19,560 nucleotides of DNA from a bacterium. GTDB taxonomy: Bacteria; Sysuimicrobiota; Sysuimicrobiia; Sysuimicrobiales; Kaftiobacteriaceae. The first letter of the stretch is position 1. Each line of letters opens with the position of its first letter. The position numbers and the translations under genes were made by a program. Below, one piece after another: positions 2,299 through 19,560 of this stretch. The stretch is from NCBI GenBank assembly GCA_044868695.1, contig JBIOWP010000009.1:1-19560 (forward strand), given 5' to 3'. A model generated the notes under the pieces. It did not search any database. It had not been told where the DNA came from and saw nothing but the letters and a program-made list of their open reading frames with translations.

Positions 2299-3311
2299 TG
2301 AGTGCGGATGTTTGGGTTGTCGTCGAACACCAGCAGGCGGCGCCCAAGAAGATCAGCCTCGAACTGCTCAGCTGCGCCCGGCCCCTCGCCGCCTCCCTGT
2401 CCGGGAAGGTGGTCGCGTTCGTGGCCGGGACCGGTGTGGGTCCGGTTGCCGCCACCCTGGGGCCCAGAGGGGCGGATGTCGTGTATACTGCCGACCATCC
2501 CCTGCTGGGTACGTATACAACAGACGGGTACGCCGCGGTGCTTGCGGATGCCCTGCAGGGAGAGTCTCCCTCTGTCGTGCTCTTCGGGTCGACTGCTCAG
2601 GGACGGGATCTGGCGCCCCGGGTCGCGGCCCGGCTGGGAGCGGGGATCGTCACCGACTGCGCACGGGTCGATCTGCGTGACGGCGAGCTTGTGGCCACCC
2701 GTTCCATGTACACGCGGAAGGCCATCGGGACGGTGCGGTTTTCCGGCGGCCTGCGGGTCGCTGTCGTCCTGCCGGCCATGTATCCAGTTGCCGCCGCGGA
2801 TTCAGGACGCCGCTCAGAAGCCCGGGTCTGCCAGGTGGGGCTGGACCGGAAGGCCATCCGGACGACCGTGCGCGAGACAAAAGTCGTCCACCGGGAGACG
2901 ATTCCGCTGATCGAAGCCGATGTCGTCGTCTCAGGCGGCCGGGGCATGAAAGGACCGGAGAACTTTGCGCTCCTGGACGGCCTCGCGCGGGCGCTGGGCG
3001 CGGCGGTCGGATCGTCGAGGCCTCCCGTGGACTCAGGATGGGTGCCGCATGACTACGAGATCGGGCAGACCGGCAAGACGATCAGCCCGGAGGTGTACCT
3101 CGCCTGCGGCATTTCCGGGGCGCCTCAGCATCTGGCTGGCATGTCCGGCTCGAAGCACATTGTAGCCATCAACCGAGACCCGAACGCGCCCATCTTCCAG
3201 ATGGCGGATCTGGGCGTGGTCGGTGACCTGTTCGAGATCATTCCGAAGCTGACCGAAGCCGTACGAAAGGCAAAAGGCGGGACCGGGGAACAGGGACCGG
3301 GGACCGGTTAG
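2298..3311 (+). CDS. etfA: Electron transfer flavoprotein alpha subunit
   Basis: [52 protein letters not shown] coupling to etfB. The last ~10 aa derive from a 7-mer repeat. Confidence 0.96.
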
Positions 3312-3395
3312 GATGGGTTTAGCGACCATGACTGGCCGCGGAGTCAGACGGTTCAAAATGTCGGTTGGGATCGGGTCCCAGGTCCCTGGTCCCTG
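3279..3395. repeat. Inverted short-tandem-repeat element A (7-nt unit GGGACCN)
   Basis: Left arm GGGACCG GGGAACA GGGACCG GGGACCG (3279-3306). Right arm GGGTCCC AGGTCCC TGGTCCC (3373-3393). 3291-3305 pairs with 3381-3395 over 15 bp with one G-U. Confidence 0.85.
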
Positions 3396-3418
3396 CATGT
3401 CAGGTGGTGGCAACCGTG

Positions 3419-5095
3419 ATGAATCCCAGGAAGTTGGAAGAGTTACGTCAGGCGCGCCGGCGCTGGGAAGAGACGACGCTGCGAGTAGGGCTGGACCAGC
3501 AGCCTGAGCGCGCGCCGCGCTTCTCCACGCTGTCCGATATGGAGGTGGCGCGCCTCTACGCACCCGACGATCTGGCCTCGCTGGATCCCGCGCGTGACCT
3601 GGGCCTGCCGGGGGAATACCCTTTCACGCGCGGCATCCACCCCACGATGTACCGGGGCAGGCTGTGGACGATGCGGCAGTTCGCCGGTTTCGGGTCCGCG
3701 GCCGACAGCAACCGCCGGTTTCACTACCTGCTCGAGCACGGGCAGACCGGTCTGTCCGTCGCGTTCGACATGCCCACGCTGATGGGATACGACTCCGATC
3801 ATCCCCGCGCCCTGGGTGAGGTCGGACGCGAAGGGGTGGCGGTGGACACGGTTCAGGACATGGACGTGCTCCTGGGCGGACTGCCGCTGGACCGGATTAC
3901 CACGTCCATGACCATCAACGCGCCGGCCAATGTGCTGCTGGCCATGTACGTGGTGGCCGCGGAGAAGGCCGGGTTCCGGCGGGCCGACCTCGGCGGCACG
4001 ACCCAGACCGACATGCTGAAGGAGTTCATCGCGCAGAAAGAATGGATCATCCCCCCGCGGCCCAGCATGCGGCTGATTCAGGACATGCTGGTTTTCGGCA
4101 CCCGGGAGCTCCCACACTGGAACGTCATCAGCATCAGCGGGTACCACATTCGGGAGGCGGGGGCCACGGCGGCGCAGGAGTTGGCCTTCACGCTCGCCGA
4201 CGGCATCGCCTACGTCCAGGCCGGGATCGAGGCCGGTCTCGATGTAGACGCATTTGCGCCCCGGCTGTCGTTCTTTTTCGACTGCCACAACGACTTCTTT
4301 GAGGAGATCGCGAAGTTTCGCGCCGCCCGGCGGCTGTGGGCACGGATCATGCGCGAGCGGTTCCGGGCCCGCAATCCGCGCTCATGGTGGCTGCGGTTCC
4401 ACACCCAGACCGCCGGCGTCTCGCTCACCGCCCAGCAGCCGCTGAACAACATCGTGCGCGTGGCGATCCAGGCCCTGGCGGCGGTGCTGGGCGGCACGCA
4501 GTCCCTGCACACGAACTCGATGGATGAGACGTACGCATTGCCCACCGAAGAGGCCGTCATGGTCGCGCTGCGCACGCAGCAGATCATCGCATACGAGAGC
4601 GGCGCCGCCAACACCGCGGATCCACTGGGCGGATCGTATTTCGTGGAGTCGCTCACCAACCGCATGGAGGCGGAGGCGGAGGCGTACATTAAGAAGATCG
4701 ATGATCTCGGCGGCATGGTGCATGCGGTCGAGCTCGCCTACCCGCAGCGGGAGATCGCGGAGGCCAGTTACCGGTATCAGCAGCAGCTGGAGGGCAGGGA
4801 GAAATTCATCGTGGGAGTCAACGAATTCGTGCACCCGGAGGAGCAGCCGATTTCCATCCTCCGGATCGATCCGGAAATCGAGCGCCAGCAGATTGCGCGC
4901 CTGCGCCAGGTGCGCGCGGACCGCAGCACCCTCCAGGTCCGTCGGGCGTTGGACACGCTCACGCGGGCCACCGCCGGCGGGGGCAATACGATGGAGCAGG
5001 TGGTGGAGTGCGTGAAAGCCGGCGCGACCATCGGCGAGATCTGCGACGTGTTCAAGACGGTGTATGGCGAGTACCGGGAACCCGCTATCATCTGA
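3419..5095 (+). CDS. icmA: B12-dependent acyl-CoA mutase, substrate-binding large subunit; isobutyryl-CoA mutase-like
   Basis: [84 protein letters not shown]-like AGGTGGTGG at 3402-3410, start GTG 3416 or ATG 3419. The family is certain; the icmA assignment rests on the Phe/Gln residues. Confidence 0.8.
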
Positions 5096-5108
5096 AGGTC
5101 GGGACTAG

Positions 5109-5522
5109 ATGGCTACTCAGAAGATTCGTATCATTGTTGCCAAGCCGGGGCTCGACGGCCACGACCGGGGCGCAAAGGTCGTGGCGCGCGCGCTGCGTGA
5201 CGCGGGATTTGAAGTCATCTACACCGGGCTGCATCAGACCCCGGAGATGATCGTCAATGCTGCGATTCAAGAGGACGCCGACGCCATCGGGTTGTCCATC
5301 CTCTCCGGCGCGCACATGACCCTGCTGCCGCGGGTGATGGTGATGCTGCGCCAGAAGGGCGCTGGCGACGTGGTGGTGTTCGGCGGAGGGATCATTCCAG
5401 AAGAGGACATCGCGGCCCTGAAGGCCGCCGGCGTCAGCGAAATCTTCCAGCCAGGAGCGTCGCTGGACTCCATCGTCCGATGGGTGCGCGAACACGTGAA
5501 ACCCAGAGGGGTGAAGACATAG
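5109..5522 (+). CDS. icmB: B12-binding small subunit of acyl-CoA mutase
   Basis: [13 protein letters not shown] (DxHxxG cobalamin motif), [16 protein letters not shown]. Stand-alone 137-aa protein directly after the large subunit. Confidence 0.85.
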
Positions 5523-6436
5523 AGGACGCGCATTCATCGAAGCCGGGTGTCCTGAGGGAAGGGGAGCCGGTCCTCCTGATCGACCGCAAGGACCGGCGGT
5601 ACCTGCTCACCTTGCGCGCCGGCGCCGTGGCCGACCTGCGGGGGGGCAAACTTGCGCACGACCATCTCATCGGGACATCGGAGGGGCGGTTCGTGCGCAC
5701 GACCCGCGGCGAGGTCTTTCTCATGCTGCGTCCTACGCTGGCCGAATTCGTCCTGGACATGCCCCGCGGCGCGCAGATCATCTATCCAAAAGACCTGAGC
5801 GCAATTCTTCTGGCGGCCGATATCTACCCCGGCGCGACGGTGCTCGAGGCGGGTACCGGGTCGGGCGCGCTCACGATGACGCTCCTGCGAGCGGTGGGAC
5901 CGGCGGGGCGCGTCTACTCCTACGAAATCCGCGGCGAGTTTGCCGCCCGCGCGGCCCAGAACATCGGCCGCTACGTCGGCTCGTCTGACCAGCTGGTGGC
6001 TCGCGCGCAAGATGTCTACGAGGGTATTCCTGATACGCCGCTGGACCGCATCGTGCTCGACGTCCCGGAGCCGTGGCGCGTCGTCCCACACGCCGTCCGG
6101 ACCCTGCGACTCGGCGGAATCATCCTATCCTATGTGCCGACCGTGCCTCAGGCGGCGCGCATGGTTGAAACACTGCGGATGTCCGGCGGATTCAGCTTGA
6201 TCGAGACATTTGAGACGCTCGTCCGCCCGTGGAACATCGAGGGGGCAAGCGTGCGCCCCGCCCACCGTATGGTGGCACACACCGCGTTCATCACGACGGC
6301 GCGGCGGGTGGACCTACACAGGGAACGCGGGGACGCGGGAACACGGGAACGCGAAGACGGGCAGCTAGGGGGCGAGTCTCCAGACGGCGGGGATGAGGAC
6401 GTAGGAGACGATTCCCAAGAGGATCGCCAAGGGTAG
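5519..6436 (+). CDS. trmI: tRNA (adenine-N1)-methyltransferase (TrmI/Gcd14 family); start uncertain (ATA 5519 or ATG 5480)
   Basis: [59 protein letters not shown]. The C-terminal ~40 aa come from a repeat plus antisense overlap. Confidence 0.92.
6321..6360 (+). repeat. Short tandem repeat B (8-nt unit GGGAACGC)
   Basis: GGGAACGC GGGGACGC GGGAACAC GGGAACGC GAAGACGG at the trmI/SLC13 convergence. Confidence 0.8.
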
Positions 6437-8155
6437 CCCAATCCGCACGTAGTCCCGCATCTGGTACCCGCCGGGGCCCATGACCAGCAGGTTCACCGGG
6501 TTGCTGATCGGCGTGAACGTCGTGCCGGTCCCGGCGATCACCGCCATGACGAACGCGTGCGGATGTGCCCCTGTCGCGCCCGCGGCCTGGACCGCATTGG
6601 GCGCCAGGACCGTGGTCGCGGCGATGCTCGGCATGAGCTGGTTGAGGATAATGGACACGCCCAGGACCGTGGCCAGCGCGGATAGTGGGTGAGCCCCCAG
6701 CGTACGCAGCGCAACGCCGCTGAGCGCGGACGCGGCGCCGGTGGTGGACAGCGCGGTGCCGATCGGCAGAATGGCGCCGATGAACACCAGCGCGCGCCAG
6801 TCGATCACCTGGTAAATCTCGTCCACCGTCAGCGCGCGCGACCCGAGGATAATTCCGGCGGCGAGCAGCGTCGCGAGGACGATGGGGACGCCGGCGGTGC
6901 TGGCGCCGATCATGACGGCCACGCTGAGCAGCGCCCACGGCGCCCGTGCCGTCCGCAGCTCCTGCGACCCGTCAGGCTCGAGGACCAGGAAGTCGGAGTC
7001 CTGGCGCAGCAGGGCGATCCGGTCCCGGGGGCCCTGGACAAGCAACGCATCGCCCAGTCGAACGGGGAGGTCCACCAGACCGGTCCGCCTGGGGCGTCCT
7101 TCCTGCCAGATCGCCAGGACGGTCAGGCCGTACTTCTCCCGGAAGTTGATCTCGCGGAGGGTCTTGCCGGCCAGGCCGGAACGCGGCGCCAGGATGGCCT
7201 CGACCACCCTGATCTGGGCGGACTCGAGCACCGTCACCTCGGGCTCGCGTGGTGCGGAGAGGCCGACCTGTTGCAAGTCGTGGGACCGCTGCAGGTCCTC
7301 CGGCCGTCCTTCCACGACCAGACGATCCCCGCCCCGTAGGCGTTCGTCGCGCGTGGGCGCGATGATCCGCTGTGTGCCACGAGAGATGCTGAGCACCGTC
7401 AACCCCAGCGATCGTCCCAGGTCGCTCTGTGCGATGGTCTTGCCGGAGAGGGGAGAGCCGTCGGGAATGCGGACTTCAAACAACCGCTCGCGTAGCCGGT
7501 ACAGGTCGACCAGGTGCTCATGGCGAGGCGGTTCGTGGATCGCGACGTCCGGCAGCCACCGCCGGCCGATCAATCCGATGAACGCGACCCCCGCCACCAG
7601 GAACGCGGTTCCGAGCGGCGCGAACTCGAAAAACGCAAAGGGGCGAAGGCCATGCTGGACCAGCGACTCACTCGCGATGAGGTTGCTCGGGCCTGAAATC
7701 AGCGTCAGGTTGCCCCCCAGCCGCGTGCCCAGCGCCAGAGGGAGCAGCAGTCTGGATGGGCTGACCTTTGCCTCGCGGGCGGTCGCGACCGCGGCGGGGA
7801 GCAGCACGGCCATCGCGCCGATGCTGTTCATGACGCCCGAGAGCAGGCCCCCGGCGGCGCAATACGCCAGCGCCAGGCGGGCTTCGCTGCGTCCGGCCAC
7901 CCCCAGGATTCTCTGACCCAGCACCGCGGCGACGCCGGTGCGCTCGAGGCCTGCGCTGACCACAAACACCGCGGCGATGGCGACCAGCGCCGGTGATCCG
8001 AACCCGGCCAGGCCGGCTTCGAGAGTCACGGTACCGGAGAGCAGCAGGACGATCAGGACAAGGAGGGCGATGGCGTCGGGACGCCAGCGGCCCAGCGCGA
8101 ACGCCGATGAGGCAGCAACGAGGAGCGACAGAGTGAGCGCGGCCGCGGTGGACAC
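6365..8155 (-). CDS. SLC13/CitMHS-type permease with two TrkA-C (RCK_C) domains
   Basis: Hydrophobic N- and C-terminal blocks. Motifs SPSRLLLPLA, GGNLTLISGPSNLI, SPLSGKTIAQ and SGLAGKTLREINFR (RCK_C), LGDALLVQG, TPISNPVNLLVMGPGGY. GTG start 9 nt after the thiolase stop. Confidence 0.92.
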   Translation of the reverse strand: MSTAAALTLSLLVAASSAFALGRWRPDAIALLVLIVLLLSGTVTLEAGLAGFGSPALVAIAAVFVVSAGLERTGVAAVLGQRILGVAGRSEARLALAYCAAGGLLSGVMNSIGAMAVLLPAAVATAREAKVSPSRLLLPLALGTRLGGNLTLISGPSNLIASESLVQHGLRPFAFFEFAPLGTAFLVAGVAFIGLIGRRWLPDVAIHEPPRHEHLVDLYRLRERLFEVRIPDGSPLSGKTIAQSDLGRSLGLTVLSISRGTQRIIAPTRDERLRGGDRLVVEGRPEDLQRSHDLQQVGLSAPREPEVTVLESAQIRVVEAILAPRSGLAGKTLREINFREKYGLTVLAIWQEGRPRRTGLVDLPVRLGDALLVQGPRDRIALLRQDSDFLVLEPDGSQELRTARAPWALLSVAVMIGASTAGVPIVLATLLAAGIILGSRALTVDEIYQVIDWRALVFIGAILPIGTALSTTGAASALSGVALRTLGAHPLSALATVLGVSIILNQLMPSIAATTVLAPNAVQAAGATGAHPHAFVMAVIAGTGTTFTPISNPVNLLVMGPGGYQMRDYVRIGLPLAILLGIVSYVLIPAVWRLAP

Positions 8156-8164
8156 GCCGGCCGG

Positions 8165-9343
8165 CTACACGCGCTCGACCGCGACGGCCACCGCCTCGCC
8201 GCCGGCCAGGCAGATCGCGGCGACACCGCGGCGTGCGTCGTAGCGGGGCATCGCTGAGAGCAGCGTCGTCAGGATCCGGGCGCCGCTGCAGCCGATCGGG
8301 TGGCCCAGGGCAACCGCGCCGCCGTGAACGTTCACGTGGTCGAAGGGGATGCCGAGATCGCGGCAGACCGCGATGACGACCGCGCCAAAGGCTTCGTTGA
8401 TCTCGAACAGGTCGACGTCGTCTTTCTGCCAGCCGACTTTCTCCAGGAGCCGCCGCGTCGCGTGCGCGGGAGCGATGGTGAACCACTCCGGCGCCATCGC
8501 GGCTCCGGCCTGCCCCACAAGGCGGGCGATGGGCTTCCACCCGCGGCGGCGCGCCGCATCGTCGGCCGCCAGCACCACGGCCGCTGCGCCGTCGCTGATG
8601 CTGCTCGCGTTGGCCGCGGTGACGGTGCCGCCTTCTTCGAACACGGGACGCAGGGTGGGGATCTTGTCGAAATCGACGCGGCGAGGTTCTTCGTCCTCAC
8701 CCACGACCTGACTCGCCCCCTTCCCGCCGGACACGTCGACGGGAACGATTTCGTCGGCGAACACGCCGGAGTCCATCGCCGTCAGGGCGCGCGAATAACT
8801 CAACCGGGCGAAGTCGTCCTGCTCCTGGCGCGAGATGCGGTACTCCCGCGACAGCAGCTCGGCGCAGTTGCCCATGTGCAGGTTCTGGTACGCATCAAGG
8901 AGTCCGTCCCGCAGGATCGTGTCGACGATCTTGTCGTCGCCGAGCCGGTACCCGGTGCGGGCCCGGGGCAAGAGGTACGGTGACGCGCTCATGTTCTCCA
9001 TGCCGCCGGCGACGGCCACGTCCGCGTCCCCCGCCCCGATGGCCTGCGCGGCCAGCATCACCGCTTTCAGACCGGAGCCGCACATCTTGTTGATCGTTGT
9101 TGCGGGCACGGCCTGAGGCAATCCTGCGTGCAGCGTCGCCTGGCGGGCGGGCGCCTGGCCAAGGCCGGCGCTCAGCACGTTGCCCATGAAGACCTCGTCG
9201 ACCTGGTCCTTCTGGACGCCGGCCCGGCGCAGGGCCTCGGCGATCGCGATGCTGCCGAGTCGCGGTGCGGGGATCGACGCCAGGCCGCCGAGGAACCGGC
9301 CGATGGGCGTGCGGGCGGCGCCGATGATCACGACCGTGCGCAT
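8165..9343 (-). CDS. Acetyl-CoA C-acetyltransferase (classical thiolase)
   Basis: ARTPIG, GQAPARQA, INKMCGSG (nucleophile Cys), NEAF, GHPIGCSG, CLAGGEA. All catalytic residues are present. Confidence 0.96.
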   Translation of the reverse strand: MRTVVIIGAARTPIGRFLGGLASIPAPRLGSIAIAEALRRAGVQKDQVDEVFMGNVLSAGLGQAPARQATLHAGLPQAVPATTINKMCGSGLKAVMLAAQAIGAGDADVAVAGGMENMSASPYLLPRARTGYRLGDDKIVDTILRDGLLDAYQNLHMGNCAELLSREYRISRQEQDDFARLSYSRALTAMDSGVFADEIVPVDVSGGKGASQVVGEDEEPRRVDFDKIPTLRPVFEEGGTVTAANASSISDGAAAVVLAADDAARRRGWKPIARLVGQAGAAMAPEWFTIAPAHATRRLLEKVGWQKDDVDLFEINEAFGAVVIAVCRDLGIPFDHVNVHGGAVALGHPIGCSGARILTTLLSAMPRYDARRGVAAICLAGGEAVAVAVERV

Positions 9344-9352
9344 GCTACGCTC

Positions 9353-9381
9353 AGTCTACTGCGCGGTCCACACCCGCGCAA
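9353..9381 (-). promoter_or_regulatory. Putative sigma70-type promoter for thiolase (near-leaderless)
   Basis: Minus strand TTGCGC-N17-TAGACT, 9 nt before ATG 9343; no Shine-Dalgarno. Confidence 0.55.
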
Positions 9382-9401
9382 CGCCGCCCTCCGCGTGTGG
9401 T

Positions 9402-9431
9402 TTGACACCCCGGAGGATCCCATGCTAGACT
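9402..9431 (+). promoter_or_regulatory. Putative sigma70-type promoter for the lysA operon
   Basis: TTGACA (9402-9407)-N18-TAGACT (9426-9431) with an extended TG at 9423-9424. Confidence 0.65.
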
Positions 9432-9451
9432 CGGCTTCAAGTTTTCCCACC

Positions 9452-10765
9452 ATGAGCGCCGATACGGTCGCCGCCCACGGGTATTCCATCAACGCCGCCG
9501 GGCACCTGGAGATCGGCGGGGCGGACGCCGTTGGTCTCGCGCGTGAGTTTGGGACCCCGCTCCACGTCCTCGACGAAGGCCGGATACGTGCGAACTGCGG
9601 GGCCTACCGCGACGCGCTGGCCCGCGAATACGGCAACGCCCGGCCGCTATTCGCGTCCAAAGCCTGCTGCATCATCGCGTCCTGTCAGATTGCCGCCCAA
9701 GAAGGGCTGGGGGTTGACGTCGCTTCCGGCGGGGAGTTGCATACGGCGCTGCGCGCCGGCGTGTCCCCGGGCGATCTGTACTTCCACGGCAACAACAAAA
9801 CCCCCGACGAAATCGAGTATGCGCTCCGGTCCGGCGTCGGGCGGATCATTGTCGACAACGACTATGAACTCGACCTGCTGGAGGCGGCGACGGCCCGGCT
9901 GGATGCCACCGCCGACATCCTGCTCCGGTTGACGCCGGGGATCGAGCCGCACACCCACAAGGCGATCCGCACCGGGGGCGTGGACTCGAAATTTGGATTT
10001 GGGATCCTGGACGGGACGGCCCACCGCGCCGTCGCACGCGCAGGCCGCATGGACCGGGTCCGGCTGCGCGGCCTCCACGCCCACATCGGGTCCCAAGTGT
10101 TCGATCTCGAGCCGTTTCAGATGGCGGCGGCGGCGATGGTGGAGTGTGCCGCGCGCGTCCGGGATGACCTCGACGTGACCGTCGAAGAGCTGAATCTCGG
10201 CGGCGGCCTGGGAATCCGGTACCTCCGGACCGATGAGCCGCCGGCGATTGCCGACTACGTGCGCGCCGTAGCCAGCGTCGTCAAGGCAAAGCTCGCCGAG
10301 CACCGTTTGGCGCCGCCCCGCCTGTTCGTCGAGCCCGGCCGGTCGATCGTGGGCGATGCGGGGGTCAGCCTCTACACGGTGGGTGCGGTCAAGCAGATAG
10401 CAGGTGTCCGGACCTACATCTCGGTGGATGGTGGGATGTTTGAGAATCCGCGCCCGGCGCTGTACGGCGCGCGGTACGAAGCGGTCGCGCCGGCGCGCGC
10501 GGCCGAGGCGCCGTCACAGACCGCCGCCGTCGCGGGGCGGTGCTGCGAGTCCGGGGACGTCCTGATCTGGGAGGCATCCCTGCCGCCGCTGCGGAGCGGG
10601 GATCTGCTGGCGGTGTTTGCCACCGGCGCCTATACTTACTCGATGGCCAGCAACTACAACCGCTTCCCACGGCCGGCCGTCGTGCTGGTGCGCGACGGCC
10701 GGGCGCGCGTCGTCGTGGAGCGCGAAACATACGATGATATCGTGCGCAAGGACGTTCCCCTCTAA
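9452..10765 (+). CDS. lysA: Diaminopimelate decarboxylase
   Basis: FGTPLHV, FASKA (PLP Lys), DVASGGEL, HGNNK, SKFG, HIGSQ, EPGRS, CESGD, GAY, SNYN. An alternative start at ATG 9422 is preceded by GGAGG. Confidence 0.95.
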   Translation: MSADTVAAHGYSINAAGHLEIGGADAVGLAREFGTPLHVLDEGRIRANCGAYRDALAREYGNARPLFASKACCIIASCQIAAQEGLGVDVASGGELHTALRAGVSPGDLYFHGNNKTPDEIEYALRSGVGRIIVDNDYELDLLEAATARLDATADILLRLTPGIEPHTHKAIRTGGVDSKFGFGILDGTAHRAVARAGRMDRVRLRGLHAHIGSQVFDLEPFQMAAAAMVECAARVRDDLDVTVEELNLGGGLGIRYLRTDEPPAIADYVRAVASVVKAKLAEHRLAPPRLFVEPGRSIVGDAGVSLYTVGAVKQIAGVRTYISVDGGMFENPRPALYGARYEAVAPARAAEAPSQTAAVAGRCCESGDVLIWEASLPPLRSGDLLAVFATGAYTYSMASNYNRFPRPAVVLVRDGRARVVVERETYDDIVRKDVPL

Positions 10766-10783
10766 GTCTTGAAGTAACCGTCG

Positions 10784-11410: not shown

Positions 11411-12117
11411 CCTACAGCGTGAAGCTGCCGCAGTTTGAGGGTCCAATCGATCTGCTCCTCACGCTGGCGCAGCAGGGGCAGGTGGACCTGCGCGACATTC
11501 CGCTGGGGCAGATCGCCGAGGACTATCTGGCCGGCACCCGCGGCGGGCTCGACCTCGAAGAAGCCACCGAAGTCCTGTGGATGCTCGCCGCGATGATCGA
11601 GATGAAGTCGCGGCTTCTGGTGCCGAAGCCGGAGACACCCGAGGAGCCGCTCCCGGAGGCCGAGGAACCCTCTGACCTCCAGGAACGGCTGGAAGAGAAG
11701 CTGCAGGAGTACCGGGCGTTCAAGGAAGTCGCGTCGGCGCTGCGTGCGCTGGAGGACTATCAGCACCGTGTCTTCGCGCGGTCGCCGGGGGATGACCCCA
11801 ATGCCGTGTTCCTGGAAGGGGTGACGCTCGGTGATCTGTTCCGCGCGTTCCAGCAGGTCCTTGAACGGGCCCAGGAACAGGTCGGGGAAATTCCGGCCGA
11901 AGAGGTGAAAGTGGCCGAACGGATGCAGGGGATCCTGGCCCTGCTGGGCCGGCACCCCGAGGGCGTCGTGTTCGGGGACCTCTTTCCTACCACGGCCACG
12001 AAGCTGGAGGTCATCGTGACGTTTCTCGCGCTGCTGGAGCTCATCAAGAACCGGCGCGCGCGTGCTGCGCAGCCCCAGACGTTCGCGCCCATCCGGATCG
12101 TGCTGGTGGCATCATGA
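11407..12117 (+). CDS. scpA: Segregation and condensation protein A (kleisin)
   Basis: YSVKLPQFEGPIDLLL, KSRLLVP, VTFLALLELIK. TTG start overlaps the upstream TGA, with GGGGAG upstream. Confidence 0.93.
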   Translation: MTYSVKLPQFEGPIDLLLTLAQQGQVDLRDIPLGQIAEDYLAGTRGGLDLEEATEVLWMLAAMIEMKSRLLVPKPETPEEPLPEAEEPSDLQERLEEKLQEYRAFKEVASALRALEDYQHRVFARSPGDDPNAVFLEGVTLGDLFRAFQQVLERAQEQVGEIPAEEVKVAERMQGILALLGRHPEGVVFGDLFPTTATKLEVIVTFLALLELIKNRRARAAQPQTFAPIRIVLVAS

Positions 12118-12710
12118 CGATCCCCGCTAGTCTCACCCCGCCGTCCGACGACCTCGACCTCGAGGAACTGAAAAAAGCCACCGAGTGTCTTCTGCTGGTG
12201 GGGGGCGGTCCGGTGACCGTCGAGCAGCTCGCGGAGGCGCTCGCGGCGCCGCCGCAGACGGTTCACGCGCTGTTGTGGGAGCTGCAGCAGGACTACGGCG
12301 TCCGCGGGCTCCAGATTCAGGCCGTGGCCGGTGGATATCAATTGTGCACGCGCCCGGAACTCGCGCGGTATGTGCAGCAGTTTCTGCGGCTGGATCACCG
12401 CGAGCCGCTCTCTCAAGCGGCGCTGGAAACGCTGGCCATCATCGCGTACCGGCAGCCCACCACCCGGGCAGAGATCGAGGCCGTGCGGGGGGTGCGCAGC
12501 GACCACGTGATCGACCGTCTGGTGGAGCGGCACCTCGCCCGTGAGGTCGGCCGGAAGCAGACCCTGGGGCGGCCGATCCTCTATGGCACAACGGAAGGAT
12601 TCCTACGGTACTTCGGACTCAAAGACCTCGAAGGCCTCCCGGCGCTGGAGGGCGATGATCCCCGCCGCGCCTTCAGCGGTGGGCCGCCCGCGGCCGCTCC
12701 GCAAGAGTAG
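12114..12710 (+). CDS. scpB: Segregation and condensation protein B
   Basis: VAGGYQLCT, LSQAALETLAIIAYRQPTTRAEIEAVRGV, GRPILYGTTEGFLRYFGL. Confidence 0.96.
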   Translation: MTIPASLTPPSDDLDLEELKKATECLLLVGGGPVTVEQLAEALAAPPQTVHALLWELQQDYGVRGLQIQAVAGGYQLCTRPELARYVQQFLRLDHREPLSQAALETLAIIAYRQPTTRAEIEAVRGVRSDHVIDRLVERHLAREVGRKQTLGRPILYGTTEGFLRYFGLKDLEGLPALEGDDPRRAFSGGPPAAAPQE

Positions 12711-12712
12711 GG

Positions 12713-13123
12713 ATGGAGAAACGGCTCTATCGGTCCCGCACCGAGCGATGGATTGCGGGCGTCTGTGGTGGGCTCAGCGACTACTTCAACGTGGACGTCA
12801 GCGCGCTCCGGGTCGCCTTTGCCCTGCTCGCGCTGTGGAACGGGTTTGGGCTGCTGCTGTACCTGCTGCTGGTCATCATCGTGCCGGACGAACCGGCCCC
12901 GGAAGTGGTCACCGAGCCCGGGCTGCCTCCGCCGATCCCGGACGGGGACGACGGGCAGGGCCGGGCCCGCACGCTGGGCGCGATCCTGGTCATCGGCGGG
13001 GCCTACCTGCTGGCCCACGAAGCCCAGCTCTTCGAGATGCTCCTGCACCAGCCGTGGGTGGGCGCGGTGCTGATCATCGGGGGGCTGGTGGTCCTGCTGC
13101 TCCGGCCCAAGCGGAAGGCCTGA
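12713..13123 (+). CDS. PspC-domain membrane protein with Pro-rich linker and two extra TM helices
   Basis: KRLYRSRTERWIAGVCGGLSDYF ... LYLLLVIIVP is the PspC signature, followed by a C-terminal hydrophobic hairpin. Confidence 0.88.
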   Translation: MEKRLYRSRTERWIAGVCGGLSDYFNVDVSALRVAFALLALWNGFGLLLYLLLVIIVPDEPAPEVVTEPGLPPPIPDGDDGQGRARTLGAILVIGGAYLLAHEAQLFEMLLHQPWVGAVLIIGGLVVLLLRPKRKA

Positions 13124-13126
13124 TCG

Positions 13127-13462
13127 TCACCCGATCCTCCCTCCGACCTCCGCAGGTTTGTCGGGTTGCAGCAGGACGATGCGGCCGCCGGCCTCCATCA
13201 CCCCGAGCGTCAGGACCTCGGACGTAAAGTCGGCGATCTGTTTGGGCGGGAAATTCGTGACGCACACCACCTGGCGGCCAATCAGTTCTTCCTTCCTATA
13301 GAAGGGACGGATGGCGGCGGACGATCTCTTGACTCCGTACGGGCCGAAGTCGATCGTCAGGTGGTACGAGGGTTTCCGCGCCCGCGGGAAGTCATCCGCC
13401 GTCTGGATGACCCCCACGCGCACCTCGACTTTCTCGAAGTCTTCCCAGCCGATTCTCGCCAT
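13127..13462 (-). CDS. csaA: CsaA / Trbp111-like OB-fold tRNA-binding protein and export chaperone
   Basis: WEDFEKVEVRVG, ARKPSYHLTIDFG, KRSSA, VTNFPPKQIADFTSEVLTLG. GGAGGTGG RBS precedes ATG 13462. Confidence 0.9.
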   Translation of the reverse strand: MARIGWEDFEKVEVRVGVIQTADDFPRARKPSYHLTIDFGPYGVKRSSAAIRPFYRKEELIGRQVVCVTNFPPKQIADFTSEVLTLGVMEAGGRIVLLQPDKPAEVGGRIG

Positions 13463-13601
13463 GACGCCACCTCCCGGCAGGACTGCTTTTGCAGTGACCG
13501 GAATGGGTAGAGGACATGTGCCGGGCGCGCAGTGCGGAAGCCGCCACAGTGTGCCTTGCCGTTTCGGCGCCGCCCTCGGGCTTTCCCGTACCCAGACCTC
13601 G

Positions 13602-14294
13602 ATGAGGCCCGGGAGGCCGACCGGCCAGCCGATCGTCGCCATCGACGGGCCTGTCGGGGCGGGGAAGAGCACCGTGGCGCGCGCGGTCGCCCAGCGCCTG
13701 AACTTCCGCTACGTCGATACCGGGGCGATGTACCGTTCGGTGGCGTGGGCCGCGCTCAGATGCGGGATGAGTTTGCAGGACGAGGCAGCCGTGACGGCCC
13801 TGGCCGGATCGCTGCGCATCGAGTTCGTGACTCATCCGCAGGGCCAGCGGGTGCTCGTCGACGCCGTGGACGTGACCGAGGCGATCCGGGCGCCCGAGGT
13901 GAGCGACGGCGCCTCCGTGGTTAGTATCTATCCAGGTGTGCGAGAGGCGATGGTTGCCGTGCAGCGCCGTCTCGGCGCAGAAGGCGGCGTGGTCATGGAA
14001 GGGCGCGACATCGGCACCGTCGTGTTCCCTGACGCCGAGGTGAAGGTATTCCTCGACGCGTCTTTGGATGTGCGCGCGCAGCGCCGTTTCGAAGAACTCC
14101 GGGGACGGGGCGCGGTGGTGGAGTTCGAGGCGGTGCGGAGAGCAGAAGAAGAACGCGACCGCCGGGACCGCACACGCGACCACTCGCCGCTCCGGCAGGC
14201 GCCCGATGCAATTGTGATCGACTCGACCGGCGTCCCCGCCGACGCGGTGGTCGACCGTATTGTGCGGCTCGTCCAGGGCCACGCGAATGGGTAG
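13602..14294 (+). CDS. cmk: Cytidylate kinase
   Basis: VAIDGPVGAGKST, DTGAMYR, VMEGRDIGTVVFPDA, RDRRDRTR...SPL. Confidence 0.95.
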   Translation: MRPGRPTGQPIVAIDGPVGAGKSTVARAVAQRLNFRYVDTGAMYRSVAWAALRCGMSLQDEAAVTALAGSLRIEFVTHPQGQRVLVDAVDVTEAIRAPEVSDGASVVSIYPGVREAMVAVQRRLGAEGGVVMEGRDIGTVVFPDAEVKVFLDASLDVRAQRRFEELRGRGAVVEFEAVRRAEEERDRRDRTRDHSPLRQAPDAIVIDSTGVPADAVVDRIVRLVQGHANG

Positions 14295-14991
14295 CGCGCG
14301 CACCAGAGAACCAGGGGGGTTCGTCAGCGGCCTCTGGTACTTCTTTTGGAAAACGGCGTTGTGGGCGATCGCGAAGGTCGCGTTCCGCCTGCGGATCGAG
14401 GGCCGGGAGCACGAGCCTCGGCGCGGGCCCTTTATCGTGGTGGGCAATCACGTCAGCGCCATCGACCCGCCGCTGGTCGGGATCGCGCTCCGCCACCGCG
14501 CCGCCTACATGGGCAAGCGGGAACTGTTCGACGTTCCGGTGCTGGGCGTGCTCCTGCGGTCGATCGGCGTCTTCCCGGTCCACCGGGGAGCCCCGGACCA
14601 TGGCGCCATCCGGAAGTCTCTGGACGTGCTGGGATCCGGCGGGGTGCTGGTGCTGTTCCCGGAGGGGACCCGCAGTCCTGACGGCCGGCTGCAGAAACCC
14701 GAACCCGGGAGCGCGATGATTGCCCTGCGCACCGGCGCGCCCGTGCTGCCTGTCGCCGTCATCAACAGCCAGCGCATTCTGCCCAAGGGCGCCCGCCGGC
14801 CATCCTTTCAACAAGTGGTCGTCCGGATGGGACCGCCGGTGTCCGTCCCGCAGGTCGACGGGCGGCTGGAGCATGAGCTGCTGGCGGAGTGGAGCGAACG
14901 CATTCTTGCAGCGATCGAACGTCTGCTCCCGGAGGAGCAGCGCCGCGTCACCCGCGGCCCGGTACAATCACCTCGAGTGCCTGGGGGATGA
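14287..14991 (+). CDS. plsC: 1-acyl-sn-glycerol-3-phosphate acyltransferase
   Basis: NHVSAID (HxxxxD), FPVHRG, FPEGTRS. Lies directly after cmk. Confidence 0.9.
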   Translation: MGSARTREPGGFVSGLWYFFWKTALWAIAKVAFRLRIEGREHEPRRGPFIVVGNHVSAIDPPLVGIALRHRAAYMGKRELFDVPVLGVLLRSIGVFPVHRGAPDHGAIRKSLDVLGSGGVLVLFPEGTRSPDGRLQKPEPGSAMIALRTGAPVLPVAVINSQRILPKGARRPSFQQVVVRMGPPVSVPQVDGRLEHELLAEWSERILAAIERLLPEEQRRVTRGPVQSPRVPGG

Positions 14992-15865
14992 TCCGAAACA
15001 CCGCCGGCACCCTGCCGACGGTTTCCCCGTCCGCATGGATCGCGAGCGGAACGTCGCTGTCCACCCGGACTTCGTGCGCCGCGGTATGGAAGACCTTCGG
15101 ATGCTGCAGGTGGCGGCCTGAGAAGACTTTCGGAAGCACCGCGAGCGTTTCCCATTTCGTGAGGTCGGTCGCATAGACGACGGCCAGCAGGCCATCGTCG
15201 ACGTGCGCGTGCGGGGCCATATACATTCCCCCGCCGTACCAGTTGGTGTTCGCGGCGGCGAGCAGGAACATCCGGATCCGCTGCTCCCCCCCATCAATGG
15301 TGATCCGCGTGGCCACCGGGCGGTACGTGAGCAGCGTCCGGAGGATGCCCGCCACGTACACCGCCGTCCCTCGGATCCAGCGCGGCCACCGATTGACCAG
15401 CTGCGCGACCTCGGCGTCAAATCCAACGCCCGAAATCGTCGCAAAGTACCGGTCGTTGACCTGCCCGACATCCACGCGGCGTCGCCTGCCGTCCAGCACG
15501 GCGCGCGCGGACGCGTGGGGGTTCAGCGGGATGCCCAGGCAGCGTGGGAAATCGTTGGCGGTGCCTTCGGGGATGATGGCCAGCGCGGGGCGCGGGTCGG
15601 CCGGGCTGTGGAGCAATCCGTTGATGGCCCAGTGGGTCGTGCCATCGCCGCCGACGGAGATGATGGTCGCAAACCCATCGCCGCCGGCCCGCTGCGCGAT
15701 CGCCATCCCCTCCTGCGGCGAGTGAGTCGTGGCTTCTTCGAGATCCAGTCCCGCTCCGCGCAGAATCGCCCGCAGCCCCGGCCACGCCCGCTGCCCGCGC
15801 CCCCGGGCCGCGGAGGGATTGATGAGTGCAAGCGCGCGACCGGCACGCGGTGGAGGCGGCGACAT
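14948..15865 (-). CDS. Diacylglycerol/lipid kinase, YegS/Rv2252/BmrU family
   Basis: INPSAARG, GGDGT, PEGTANDF, GVGFDA, YGGGM, DDGLL, HADGE. Confidence 0.92.
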   Translation of the reverse strand: MSPPPPRAGRALALINPSAARGRGQRAWPGLRAILRGAGLDLEEATTHSPQEGMAIAQRAGGDGFATIISVGGDGTTHWAINGLLHSPADPRPALAIIPEGTANDFPRCLGIPLNPHASARAVLDGRRRRVDVGQVNDRYFATISGVGFDAEVAQLVNRWPRWIRGTAVYVAGILRTLLTYRPVATRITIDGGEQRIRMFLLAAANTNWYGGGMYMAPHAHVDDGLLAVVYATDLTKWETLAVLPKVFSGRHLQHPKVFHTAAHEVRVDSDVPLAIHADGETVGRVPAVFRIIPQALEVIVPGRG

Positions 15866-15893
15866 GGTGCTGTCGCTATACGGCGACCGGAAG

Positions 15894-15922
15894 GTGCAAT
15901 CCTGTGTTTGCCATAGTATGCT
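15894..15922 (+). promoter_or_regulatory. Putative promoter for ispH (near-leaderless)
   Basis: GTGCAA-N17-TATGCT, 8 nt before ATG 15931. Confidence 0.4.
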
Positions 15923-15930
15923 AAGGGACG

Positions 15931-16806
15931 ATGGAGATTGTCGTCGCCAAGCACATGGGCTTCTGCGGCGGGGTGAAGCGCGCTGTGGACATGGCGCGCA
16001 GCACCGCGGAGCAGTCGTCCGGACCGGTGTTCACCTGGGGCCCGCTGATCCATAACCCGCAAGTCGTGACCAGGCTGCAGGAGGCGGGCGTCGACGTGGC
16101 CGACCGGCTCGACGACCTCGCGGGCGAGGCGTTTGTGGTCTCCGCCTACGGCGTCGAGCATGCTGTGCTTGAGGCGGCGAAGAGCCGCGGCATGAGGATC
16201 GTGGACGCCACCTGCCCCGTCGTCATCCGCGCCCATTCCCTGGCGTTCAAACTGGTTGAAGAAGGCTACCATCTGGTGGTCGTCGGCGACCACGGACACC
16301 CTGAGATCGTCACGCTAAAAGAAGCGCTGGGCGACAAAGTGACCATCGTGCACAACCGGGATGAGGCGGCGCAGGTGAAGCTGCGCGGCCGGGTGGCGGT
16401 GATGTCTCAAACCACCCAGTCTCAGGAAAACTTCCGGCAGATCGTCGGGGACCTGAGCTTACGCACCAAGGAACTGCGGGTGGTCAATACGCTCTGTCCG
16501 GCGATCACCGTGCGACAAGAGGAAGCAGAGCGCATGGTTGACGAAGTCGACGCGCTGATCGTCATTGGTGGGCACCACAGCGCGAACACGACACGTCTGT
16601 GGGAGATCGGCCGGACCCACCGCCTGCCGACGCACCACATTGAAGTGGCAGAGGAACTGGACCCCGGCTGGTTCGATGGGGTCGAGCGGGTGGGCATCAT
16701 GTCGGGCGCCAGCACCCCTGAATGGATTATCGCCGAAGTCCTGCACCGATTGGATGAGATAGGGCGGCAACACGAAACCGCACAACCTACTCAATCTACA
16801 CAATGA
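15931..16806 (+). CDS. ispH: 4-hydroxy-3-methylbut-2-enyl diphosphate reductase
   Basis: GFCGGVKRA, IHNPQV, DATCPVV, HPE, SQTT, NTLCPA, SANT, GASTP, with three Fe-S Cys. No S1 fusion. The tail ETAQPTQSTQ is repeat-derived. Confidence 0.95.
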   Translation: MEIVVAKHMGFCGGVKRAVDMARSTAEQSSGPVFTWGPLIHNPQVVTRLQEAGVDVADRLDDLAGEAFVVSAYGVEHAVLEAAKSRGMRIVDATCPVVIRAHSLAFKLVEEGYHLVVVGDHGHPEIVTLKEALGDKVTIVHNRDEAAQVKLRGRVAVMSQTTQSQENFRQIVGDLSLRTKELRVVNTLCPAITVRQEEAERMVDEVDALIVIGGHHSANTTRLWEIGRTHRLPTHHIEVAEELDPGWFDGVERVGIMSGASTPEWIIAEVLHRLDEIGRQHETAQPTQSTQ

Positions 16807-16902
16807 CAGACATGATGGATCCGGGGTGAACTGGGCAGTCACGCCAGGACCCCGTGCAGTTGATTGTGTAGGTTGAGTAGATTGTGTAGCTTGCGTCGTT
16901 TG
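16774..16902. repeat. Inverted short-tandem-repeat element C (9-nt unit CAAYCTACW)
   Basis: Left arm GAAACCGCA CAACCTACT CAATCTACA CAAT (16774-16804). Right arm AGTTGATTG TGTAGGTTG AGTAGATTG TGTAGCTTG CGTCGTTTG (16858-16902) is the reverse complement of the same unit. Confidence 0.88.
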
Positions 16903-16934
16903 GGGTGGCGGCTGCGGCCGCCATTTTTCACTGC

Positions 16935-18266
16935 ATGAGCGCACCCATTGTCGCAATCGTCGGCCGTCCCAACGTCGGAAAGTCGGCGCTGTTCAACCGT
17001 CTGGTGGGGCAGCGCAAGGCCATCGTGGAAGGGACGCCCGGAGTGACCCGCGACCGGCTCTATGGGACTGCGGCCTGGGGCGGCCGGGAGTTTTCAATCG
17101 TGGACACGGGCGGCCTGGTCTGGCCCGCGGGCGCGCAGGTCGGCGCACAGGTGCGCGCACAGGCCGAGCGCGCGATCGAGGACGCTGATGTGATCCTCTT
17201 CGTGGTCGATGCCCGCGCCGGGCTGGTTCCCGATGACCGTGACGTGGCGGAGCGCCTGCGCGCCAGCCGCCGGCCGGTCCTCGTGGTCGCCAACAAGGTC
17301 GAAGAGAATGATCAGCCCGGCCCCCTGGAGTTCTATGAGATGGGGCTGGGCGATCCCATTCCCATCTCAGCGCTCCACGGGCTGGGAATCGGCGATCTGC
17401 TGGACCAGATCGTCGCGCTGCTTCCAGAAGGCGGGCCGCAGGAGGCCACAGCTTCCGCGATTCAGGTAGCGGTGGTGGGACGGCCCAATGTCGGCAAATC
17501 CTCTCTCGTCAACGCGATGCTCGGAGAGGAACGCGTGATCGTCGATCCGGCCCCCGGGACGACCCGGGACGCGATCGATACGCCGTTCGTCCGCGGAGAG
17601 CGCCGGTTCATCGTCGTTGACACCGCAGGGCTGCGGCGCAAGGCCAGAGTCGAGGAGGGCCTTGAGCGGTACAGCGTCATCAGATCCCTTGAGGCGGTCG
17701 ACCGGGCCGATGTGGTCATCCTGGTCCTCGACGCGTCCGGGCCCCCGGTGGAACAGGACCAGGAAATCGCGCGCTACACGGCGGAGCAGGGGAGGGCGCT
17801 CGTCCTGGCCGTCAACAAGTGGGATCTGGTCAGCACCACGTCGAAACCGCGCGACGACCGGCTGGCGCCCGTGCGCGGGGCGATGCGCTTCGTCGAGTAT
17901 GCCGCCATCGTCTGTACGTCGGCGGTCCGTGGATGGGGGATTGCGGTGCTTGTGGACCGGGTAACAGATGCCGCGGATGCCCATGCCCGACGGGTTCCCA
18001 CCGGACCTCTGAACCGCGCGATTGAGGAGGCGGAGCATGCACACAATCCGCCGGCCGACGGGGCGGGGCGGCAGCTGAAATTGCTCTACGCCACGCAGCC
18101 CAGCGCCAAACCACCGACGATCGTCCTGTTTGTCAACGACGCGGCGCTGGTGACCGAAAACTACCGCCGCTATCTTGAATCGCAGCTGCGCGGGACGTTT
18201 GACTTCCGCGGGACACCCATCCGTCTGGTATTCCGGACCAGAGAACGGAGCAAAGCACACCGGTGA
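16935..18266 (+). CDS. der: Ribosome biogenesis GTPase Der (EngA)
   Basis: Two GRPNVGKS P-loops, PGVTRDR/PGTTRD, DTGG/DTAG, NKVE/NKWD, and a KH-like C-terminus (F.GTPIRL). Confidence 0.97.
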   Translation: MSAPIVAIVGRPNVGKSALFNRLVGQRKAIVEGTPGVTRDRLYGTAAWGGREFSIVDTGGLVWPAGAQVGAQVRAQAERAIEDADVILFVVDARAGLVPDDRDVAERLRASRRPVLVVANKVEENDQPGPLEFYEMGLGDPIPISALHGLGIGDLLDQIVALLPEGGPQEATASAIQVAVVGRPNVGKSSLVNAMLGEERVIVDPAPGTTRDAIDTPFVRGERRFIVVDTAGLRRKARVEEGLERYSVIRSLEAVDRADVVILVLDASGPPVEQDQEIARYTAEQGRALVLAVNKWDLVSTTSKPRDDRLAPVRGAMRFVEYAAIVCTSAVRGWGIAVLVDRVTDAADAHARRVPTGPLNRAIEEAEHAHNPPADGAGRQLKLLYATQPSAKPPTIVLFVNDAALVTENYRRYLESQLRGTFDFRGTPIRLVFRTRERSKAHR

Positions 18267-18865
18267 CGGCGCTGCTGGCGGTCGCGGCGGCAGGCTACCT
18301 GCTCGGTTCTCTGCCGACCGGCCTCCTCGTCGTACGGGCGCTGACCGGCACAGATATCCGCACGCTTGGCAGCGGGAACATCGGGACGGTGAACGTGTAC
18401 CGGGTGGCGGGGCTGGGCGCGTCTGCGCTGGTGCTGGCCGTGGACATGCTCAAGGGCGCCGCCGCCGTCCTGCTGGCGCGGGCGTGGGGACAGCCGGAGA
18501 CCGCGCAGGTGACGGCAGGCCTGGCGGCCATCGCCGGACACAACTGGTCGCTGTTCTTGCGTTTCCGGGGCGGGAAGGGCATCGCCACATCGTTCGGGGT
18601 CCTGCTCGCGATCTCGCCGTTCGTCGGGCTTGTGGCCGCTGCGGTATGGGGCGCCGTGGTGGGGATCACGCAGTACGCATCGCTGGGTTCGCTGTTGGGC
18701 GTTGCGTCGGTGCCGCTGCTCATGTGGTGGCGCAGGGAGCCGCTCCCGCATCTCGTATTTGGAATCATCACCGTCGCGTTTGCCGTCTACCGGCACCGGG
18801 CCAATTTAGTGAGACTCATCTCGGGGACCGAGTTGAAGATTACCGACAAACCTCGGGATCGATGA
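18263..18865 (+). CDS. plsY: Glycerol-3-phosphate acyltransferase PlsY
   Basis: YLLGSLP, GSGNIGTVN, DMLKG, GHNWS..FRGGKGIAT, HRANLVRL..GTE. GTGA overlap with der. Confidence 0.95.
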   Translation: MTALLAVAAAGYLLGSLPTGLLVVRALTGTDIRTLGSGNIGTVNVYRVAGLGASALVLAVDMLKGAAAVLLARAWGQPETAQVTAGLAAIAGHNWSLFLRFRGGKGIATSFGVLLAISPFVGLVAAAVWGAVVGITQYASLGSLLGVASVPLLMWWRREPLPHLVFGIITVAFAVYRHRANLVRLISGTELKITDKPRDR

Positions 18866-18908
18866 CTGCGCCGCGCGGGATGCGGGCATAGGAAGGGTGT
18901 GATCGACC

Positions 18909-19499
18909 ATGTTCACTCCTGACATTCCCGTACAGCTCCTTGCGCTGGCGGTTATTCTGCTCCTGGTCGCGGTGTTCGGCCTACGGCGTCTGGTATTGCG
19001 GCGTATGGCCGATCGCGCCATCCGGGATCTGCAGACAGGCACCTACACCGCCGACTTCATCCAGGAAGTCTACCAGGCCGAACTGCGCCGGGCCGAACGC
19101 ACGGGGGTGCCCTTCTCCGTAGCCCTGGTGGCGCTGCGCGATGAAGATGAGGCCGGGAAAGCGCTCCCCGCGGACGCGCCGACGGCGGCCGCCCAATGGC
19201 TGCGCAGCAACCTCCGCAGCAGCGATTACATCGGCCGCCTGGAAGAGCGCCGCTTCGCGATGGTCCTGCCCGAGACGTGGGAAGAGGATGCGCGGATCGT
19301 CATGGCGCGCATTGACGGATCGTTCCACTACCAGCCCCGGGCCAGTGAAAAAGAGCGGTGGTTGGCCTGCAGCCTCGGCGTGGCGACCTGGACGCCGGAG
19401 GCTCCCGATGTCTGGGCCGTCGCAGTGAAGCAGCTCGAGGACGCCCTGCGCAGGCCGACCCAGCAATCACCCGGCTCCCTGTCCCCCAACCACACGTAA
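18909..19499 (+). CDS. Single-TM protein with degenerate GGDEF domain
   Basis: N-terminal hydrophobic helix, then D.QTG, ELRRAERTGVPFSVALV, LRSSDYIGRLEERRFAMVLPET and CSLGVAT. This is GGDEF fold grammar with EERRF at the active-site position. Confidence 0.8.
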   Translation: MFTPDIPVQLLALAVILLLVAVFGLRRLVLRRMADRAIRDLQTGTYTADFIQEVYQAELRRAERTGVPFSVALVALRDEDEAGKALPADAPTAAAQWLRSNLRSSDYIGRLEERRFAMVLPETWEEDARIVMARIDGSFHYQPRASEKERWLACSLGVATWTPEAPDVWAVAVKQLEDALRRPTQQSPGSLSPNHT

Positions 19500-19542
19500 G
19501 TCCCTAGGAATTTCCGCCGCTCGCCAGTGCTTGCCGGCTTGA

Positions 19543-19560
19543 TCCGCGTTTCCGCGTTCC
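19543..19560 (-). repeat. Start of another 8-nt tandem repeat (same family as B), cut by the window edge
   Basis: TCCGCGTT TCCGCGTT CC; the reverse complement gives GGAACGC GGAAACGC GGA. Confidence 0.5.

Follow-up and report, generated by a model that had tools for sequence, protein, structure and literature searches.

The window analysed here (19,560 nucleotides, nt) is the whole of contig C9 of a Kaftiobacteriaceae genome assembly (G000; 2.59 Mb, 95% complete), and the sequencing runs that contain it are soil metagenomes. Four loci in it, A to D, carry degenerate arrays of 7-, 8- or 9-nt units, each at the place where an earlier note on this DNA had reported it; a scan of the window against Rfam returned no matches. 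These arrays are arms of inverted tandem-repeat elements that occur genome-wide at gene 3′ ends, and the arm elements are very probably gene-less derivatives of cassettes in which similar arms enclose a gene of family PF05635. The arms and the genes that bear them are as follows.

2298..3311, + strand: etfA (PF01012, PF00766), host gene whose 3′ end bears A
3279..3307, + strand: A, left arm; four 7-nt units (GGGACCR family) encoding the last etfA codons
3308..3373, no strand: A, spacer; 66 nt, contains the etfA stop (3309-3311), no relation to other spacers
3374..3395, − strand: A, right arm; three units in the window, 23 nt to the mutase ATG at 3419
5555..6436, + strand: trmI-like methyltransferase gene (named from Pfam), bears B
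6321..6353, + strand: B, lone left arm; four 8-nt units of the GGGAACGC family, in frame within trmI
6365-8155, minus strand: CitMHS/TrkA_C transporter gene, convergent with trmI, 3′ ends overlapping
15931..16806, + strand: ispH (PF02401), host gene whose 3′ end bears C
16781..16804, + strand: C, left arm; 9-nt units (CACAAYCTA family) encoding the IspH tail
16805..16857, no strand: C, spacer; after the ispH stop (16804-16806), its fold extends the stem
16858..16904, − strand: C, right arm; four to five 9-nt units, about 30 nt to the der ATG at 16935
19543..19560, − strand: D, partial arm; about 2.5 units of B's 8-nt family, truncated by the contig end

A and C are inverted arm pairs, as had been described: the best 20-nt arm pair of A is 90% complementary and a 24-nt pair of C is 92% complementary, with RNA folds at z −2.36 and −4.18 against shuffles. 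B, by contrast, is a lone left arm for which no partner was found (RNA fold z only −1.0), and D is a right arm cut off by the contig end. D belongs to the same 8-mer family as B, lies in right-arm orientation 43 nt downstream of a GGDEF gene and scores under the arm threshold used for the genome census. The translated tails of EtfA, TrmI and IspH (ETAQPTQSTQ) are confirmed in the translations, but such tails are a minority genome-wide (of 346 arms, 81 share 14 nt or more with a called gene). B is translated, directly following the conserved C-terminal FITTARR of the trmI product and ending 80 nt upstream of the trmI stop; however, most of the acidic tail ascribed to it, which arm-free relatives also have, arises where translation runs on into the antisense strand of the convergent transporter gene. 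The tail-to-tail overlap of the two genes measures 72 nt (window 6365-6436), and similar overlaps with acidic tails occur in relatives.

The right arm of A has four units in contigs of runs X3, X4 and X5, against three in the window, and the left arm of C has one extra unit in contigs of runs X3 and X4. Each extra unit adjoins an identical unit, and these one-unit differences are read as unit slippage in the arms, although they may be either strain variation or an assembly collapse. Runs X3 and X4 also show a joint that spans A; it is not an excision product, because its spacer is a different one that matches another genomic element.

The arrays are not confined to the window. A family-blind periodicity scan of the 2.59 Mb found 150 arrays with a 7-nt period, 58 with an 8-nt and 40 with a 9-nt period, whereas order-5 Markov sequence of 1 Mb yielded 1, 0 and 0. 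Unit matrices derived from these arrays, and hence trained on the scanned genome itself, returned 346 arms against 1 in a 2.6-Mb control; they fall into 15 families and give 103 left-right pairs and 146 lone arms. Adjacent arms within 150 nt of each other (n = 106) stand left-then-right in 100 cases and right-then-left in none, and 94 are of the same family; the orientation of each family was set from the pairs themselves, by one choice per family. Four units are the mode (123 of 206 paired arms). The 50-70 nt spacer with its own hairpin that had been described is not typical: the spacer is at most 150 nt in 98 of the 103 pairs, and in these it runs from −5 to 111 nt, mostly below 40.

Placement at gene ends is equally general. 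A stop codon lies near an outer end of 90 of the 98 short pairs, against 470 of 3000 random places, typically 3-15 nt outside the arm, and TAA is over-represented at armed stops (34/106 vs. 363/2182). Short pairs lie between tandem (74), convergent (19) or divergent (3) genes or are intragenic (2); with 222 convergent and 221 divergent junctions on offer, divergent ones are avoided (3 vs. 19). An arm lies within 80 nt of 8 of the 45 tRNA genes in G000. Unrelated families have a common outer leader (AACTRC): AACTGC occurs in 24 of 352 flanks (1.7 expected) and AACTAC in 16 (0.3 expected), all four genome copies of the longest form, TAACACGAA, adjoin an arm, and leader-like ACACGAAAC stands beside the left arm of C at 16770-16778. 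The leader-like letters at etfA are host codons that arm-free relatives also have, so the leader may partly be a target preference.

The arms and spacers themselves are nearly all unique. Among four-unit arms of five families, 57/67, 47/47, 26/27, 27/27 and 18/18 are distinct, a diversity that matches shuffles; in each of the five families tested, identical neighbours are scarcer than expected at random. Arms pair with their own partners no better than with arms of other elements (0.80 vs. 0.81, n = 84). The 81 spacers compared are mutually unrelated (best matches at most 13 nt), although one has a 38-nt copy elsewhere, and their matches to cassette interiors reach 16 nt only, which gives no general interior origin. 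The earlier analogy to MITEs (miniature transposable elements with inverted repeats) does not hold here: terminal inverted repeats are present, though imperfect and periodic, but no near-identical copies and no master copy of the arms were found, and direct matches of at least 5 nt occur in the flanks of 16% of the 98 pairs, against 10.7 ± 2.7% of controls, the element ends being undefined. With no general target duplication, the elements do not resemble copy-paste MITEs. That the arrays are independent products of slippage, with no common origin, has next to no credibility; single-unit length differences between strains would fit it, but the fixed polarity (100 to 0), the shared leader, the recurrence of families over genomes and the deficit, not excess, of identical neighbours oppose it.

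A role in RNA has more to commend it. If the hairpins served the host as RNA elements at operon junctions, either as RNase III sites or by stabilising mRNA, the strong 3′-end bias, the avoidance of divergent junctions and the good folds of A and C would follow, and in Coxiella the PF05635 family lies inside a stem excised by RNase III, according to the passages cited (PMC4990558). The account is nevertheless decidedly improbable: there is no strand asymmetry in pairing or stability and there are no U-tracts, own arms pair no better than foreign ones, the sites turn over among relatives, and 146 arms have no detected partner. Selection as a terminator or on the RNA strand was not supported, given the lack of G-U excess (G-U 119 vs. 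A-C 98), of sense-strand advantage (sense fold more stable in 40/72) and of U-tracts (U-rich tail in 4/75, unlike intrinsic terminators).

A link to a protein comes from the PF05635 genes. The earlier note had named four-helix-bundle and GxxExxY genes as cargo between similar arms in other genomes. The former was borne out: of the four PF05635 genes in G000, three lie between inverted heptamer arms, each pair of a different family, and one is unarmed. The latter was not, as PF13366 (GxxExxY) was found in none of 81 genomes of the order. Among relatives, PF05635 occurs in 16 of 21 members of the family, against 3 of 59 genomes outside it; 52 of 61 matches, here and in relatives, were fetched, and paired inverted arms were detected automatically at 37 of these 52 loci. 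Across G000 and 947 kb from relatives, PF05635 was the only cargo that arm pairs enclosed, the other long pairs having host genes inside. Each cassette that was inspected has protein genes on both sides or adjoins a tRNA. Where the unit changes, it does so in the two arms of a cassette jointly; seven cassettes with 9-mer arms cluster in the tree (support 92/70, weak). One cassette, in relative G009, has the octamer of B and D (L125), and one in G005 has a unit close to that of A. Since the arms share design and sites with the PF05635 cassettes, they are likely to be gene-less remnants of them.

A profile of 17 proteins matches 2GSC (E 2e-33) and 2RLD, of five chains each; the title of 2GSC describes five four-helix bundles, and the text cited (PMC10053308) compares it with the Avd protein of diversity-generating retroelements (DGRs). 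Seven unarmed PF05635 genes group in a single supported clade; they share one locus, conserved across the family, and have no promoter box of the kind described below (G000 C27:15513-15818, L004; L055-L058; L142; L143), and this arm-free, box-free clade is a candidate domesticated copy. Paired arms of C's unit in public records (L163-L197) are mostly in records titled 'Bacillati bacterium ANGP1' and in unclassified metagenome-assembled genomes.

Comparison of orthologous junctions, which the earlier note had proposed, revealed polymorphism in presence and in family, though not a cargo allele at the junctions of A, B and C. Of 14 relatives, 11 have nothing at the etfA junction, G008 has a relic there, and G015 and G002 bear arm pairs built of other heptamers; the trmI end bears pairs of three further families in G002, G009 and G014 and a lone arm in G005; and the ispH junction bears C's family with another spacer in G015 and octamer traces, read by eye, in three genomes. 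Conversely, where relatives have a cassette, G000 may share it, bear only a gene-less pair or a relic, or be empty (the counterparts of L063, L068, L138 and L140). One junction, presumably guaB-guaA, is gene-filled in G005 and G009 and has a gene-less pair of A's family in G000. With hundreds of sites and with filled, gene-less and empty states at orthologous junctions, the idea of a common mechanism that leaves empty versions of a cassette stands.

Over 628 junction comparisons in 947 kb of six relatives, 52 junctions are armed in both genomes, 30 in G000 only, 159 in the relative only and 387 in neither, so the relative is also armed at 52 of 82 junctions armed in G000, often with another family, against 159 of 546 unarmed ones, in a sample partly chosen for arms. 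Occupancy is highest in G011 (69 of 167 compared junctions, about four in ten, in a biased sample). Of 21 family members, 10 show a G-rich heptamer pattern, against 1 of 59 other genomes, and its unit is genome-specific: GGGACC in G000, GGGACT in G005 and GGGATC in G004 and G010. In one G000 relic, about 30 nt from the 5′ interior of the cassette that G005 and G011 have abut what is left of an eroded right arm, so that this is an internal deletion in place; a second (C145) retains the left arm and the box, with the gene absent.

The two relics fit an alternative in which every gene-less element stems from a full-cassette insertion of its own, by some other route, and has merely decayed since, its arms idle after gene loss, and the mutually unrelated spacers (n = 81) fit it as well. 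It is unlikely, however, that decay is the whole story: hundreds of arms retain four units and the genome-specific unit while their neighbouring units are identical less often than by chance, which suggests upkeep or recent supply, and the box lies near only 1 of the 103 pairs.

This box is a palindrome, ATRRCYCA-NN-TGRGYYAT, found between the left arm and the gene in many cassettes. A matrix trained on cassette promoters of 18 relatives gave 28 hits above 16 bits in G000, against 0-4 with shuffled columns, and the box lies upstream of 25 of 2361 genes. Those behind it include SSB, ComEC, UPF0102 (YraN), a Mg-chelatase-like gene ahead of DprA that is presumably ComM (YraN, ComM and DprA forming an operon), RadC, RecA and a GspH pilin, as well as Nth, NrdR, two Y1 transposases, a LAGLIDADG gene, one G000 cassette and a candidate ComF-like gene, which lacks a Pfam hit; several further hits lie before unrelated genes. 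YraN and ComM process the transformation D-loop, as the passages cited report (PMC13663708). In the family, comEC is preceded by the box at 9 of 11 loci, against none of 12 outside it (23 of 24 loci scored); the box is thus a competence motif of the host, adopted by the cassettes. A LexA/SOS reading was rejected, since neither of the two lexA genes is preceded by the box, nor are uvrB, ruvB, dinB and radA as picked by motif; both lexA promoters have GAAC-N4-GTTC-like sites.

Box hits frequently continue into a TTGA(C/A)A hexamer, and a 393-amino-acid open reading frame (ORF) with no family assigned (L157, G000 C161:1713-2894) has two box copies at its 5′ end. The box is also found on RAYT-like (REP-associated tyrosine transposase) Y1 genes and their palindromes, which resemble repetitive extragenic palindromes (REPs) (G000 C20:15755, C2:12972, C158:83, C120:39379; L260-L263), on a second palindrome family (C72, C78, C149) and on the LAGLIDADG gene (C109); several mobile elements seem to have adopted it as a promoter. 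In genus g2, none of comEC (0/2), PF05635 (0/3) and the heptamer pattern (0/3) was found; nor was comEC found in family f3 (0/15), though it is present in f4 and f5.

The best rival draws on the Y1 genes. In it, host RAYT-like Y1 (HUH) transposases would move the arms in trans on hairpins of single-stranded DNA (ssDNA), and the four-helix gene would be a passenger. Among genomes of the arm-rich genera 12 of 12 have PF01797, against 0 of 10 in g2 and g7, a perfect co-occurrence within the family, and the box stands on both G000 Y1 copies and scores at least 14 before 6 of 11 copies in relatives. Shared ancestry may account for the co-occurrence, however; the Y1 genes are flanked by unrelated REP-like palindromes of their own, and the arms are not copies of a master. 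The GYAG-like letters common behind right arms lie 3′ of the stem. REPs would have their tag (GTAG or CGTC) at the 5′ foot of a short stem, which would put the GTAG-like letters, at the 3′ foot of these hairpins, on the opposite side. On balance, movement by Y1 enzymes is improbable.

A reverse transcriptase (RT) could alternatively write the arms unit by unit with the Avd-like pentamer, in the manner of telomerase and with error-prone positions. PF05635 does resemble DGR Avd in the account cited (PMC10053308), and the order of units looks independently drawn in all five families; but Rfam matched three RT loci, all of them group II introns and none beside a cassette, and the variation is not adenine-specific, the units having invariant A's, for which reason variation of the DGR type was rejected. 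We give such writing very little probability. Several RT genes lie on small G000 contigs (C32, C44, C47, C86, C100).

The preferred explanation builds on a cassette that consists of an arm, a competence-type box, a PF05635 four-helix-bundle gene and an inverted arm. The box would drive production of the cassette protein during competence, and the protein, judging from 2GSC, would be a pentameric ring with no recognised catalytic site. On incoming ssDNA the ring would bind the periodic, imperfect arms of about four units each (at a guess, four to five units match five subunits), and binding would favour integration of arm-bearing junction alleles by host RecA, DprA, ComM and YraN, with the conserved flanking genes supplying the homology. 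In the course of natural transformation, elements would thereby be passed on and take each other's place at gene junctions; gene-less pairs would ride in trans, erosion of a pair would leave a lone arm such as B, and slippage would then shift arm length by single units. Taken whole, as gene-less derivatives of PF05635 cassettes that spread by a transformation-coupled bias at junctions, this explanation stands about midway between likely and unlikely. Its boldest form, in which the elements are transposase-free selfish DNA propagated by transformation drive, with a competence-induced pentameric four-helix protein that reads mismatched hairpin arms on ssDNA and biases which junction allele is integrated, is put forward tentatively and is rather doubtful.

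A number of observations weigh against this explanation. No mobilising enzyme or insertion event has been shown; no cargo was found at the junctions of A, B and C in 14, 20 and 29 relatives' loci; and no gain or loss of a whole element appeared among the matches listed in four strain-level runs. The exact unit of C, checked at 35 public loci, has a right arm within 75 nt at 15 and encloses a gene at none. The family of A is the commonest in G000, yet this 95%-complete assembly has no resident cassette of it, and gene-less units compared with the cassettes of their own genome gave a mixed result, the own genome being best in 2 of 5. Cassettes that share a site and encode orthologous proteins can have different units and even different periods (L064/L128, L050/L066, L127/L129), which weakens strict recognition of a unit by its protein. 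The box is absent before comEA, stands on 1 of 3 armed G000 cassettes, and scores above 14.5 at only 22 of 45 loci outside the unarmed clade, 18 of which are the training set. Arm-free genomes often have comEC (f4 12/12, f5 15/15, g7 4/5), so competence alone is insufficient. Finally, the gene calls of the census came from our own simple caller, and the relatives' regions were partly chosen for arms and come from kin that are not independent, so the p-value for site reuse overstates.

Were it true, transformation drive would account for the long-unexplained families of 7-9 nt repeats found in many bacteria and would assign a function to PF05635. Linking heptamer and octamer arrays to a large uncharacterised protein family and to a competence regulon would merge two questions into one, and the low-complexity C-terminal tails of EtfA, TrmI and IspH would be by-products, not adaptations.

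Several known systems invite comparison. Gene-less forms are already published in Geobacter and Xanthomonas (PMC2700814, PMC4692102). Geobacter metallireducens has four tandem GGGACCG units at 49 places (Aklujkar, 2009; PMC2700814); this is the unit of A, and that genome also has several families, with paired octamers on opposite strands at variable distance, but the passages cited interpret the elements as regulatory RNA or IHF/HU sites and draw no link to a cargo gene, competence or junction turnover. The GGGAATC repeats of Xanthomonas and the GGGGA(C/T)T repeats of Nostoc likewise prefer four units, form inverted pairs, lie at most 50 bp from stops on the sense strand and are rare between divergent genes (Rehm, 2015; PMC4692102); there, as far as that text is cited here, they are taken as G-quadruplex motifs, one family per genome, and are not tied to mobile elements, whereas many G000 families lack G-tracts (ATTGCGG, CGTGAAT and CACAATCTA among them). 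Beggiatoaceae have sets of TAACTGA (PMC4679880), and the origin of heptamer or octamer arrays at gene ends is left unexplained in the passages cited for all four groups (PMC2700814, PMC4692102, PMC4679880).

REP/RAYT systems share intergenic palindromes near gene 3′ ends that may supply stop codons, and a gene between its own repeats (Di Nocera, 2013; PMC3733652). Here, in contrast, no Y1 gene lies between arms, there are no near-identical copies and the arms are periodic; both G000 Y1 genes have other palindromes, with no arm within 300 nt of the box. The same family PF05635 lies inside a fold-back in the intervening sequences (IVS) of 23S rRNA, as the passages cited describe for Coxiella (PMC4990558), and Xcc0516/2GSC is Avd-like. 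The cassettes resemble the IVS in that a PF05635 ORF lies in a fold-back, unlike A to D, which hold no gene; they differ in lying at protein-gene and tRNA junctions, not in 23S rRNA, and in having periodic arms and a competence-type box. DGRs would have an RT with template and variable repeats beside the Avd gene, but here the RT matches are on other contigs, with group II intron RNA at all three loci scanned. Nor were GxxExxY cassettes, with PF13366 between arms, found.

The repeat arms are a real feature, and what is probably new is their link to the PF05635 gene and the competence box; no publication that links such arms to either was found in a literature search outside whose scope subscription journals lay. 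By analogy, the Ssn/NTS system is the closest working model: it too has a repeat-gene-repeat unit together with hundreds of gene-less NTS/SRM repeats (Chenal, 2025; PMC11893778). It differs, in the passages cited, in having a GIY-YIG nuclease and a single 20-50 nt hairpin, whereas no such nuclease was found between the repeats in G000 or in the relatives' 947 kb, where PF05635 is enclosed by long degenerate tandem arms. Ssn acts on ssDNA in natural transformation (PMC11893778), and in the elements described here it is the shared promoter box alone that points to transformation.

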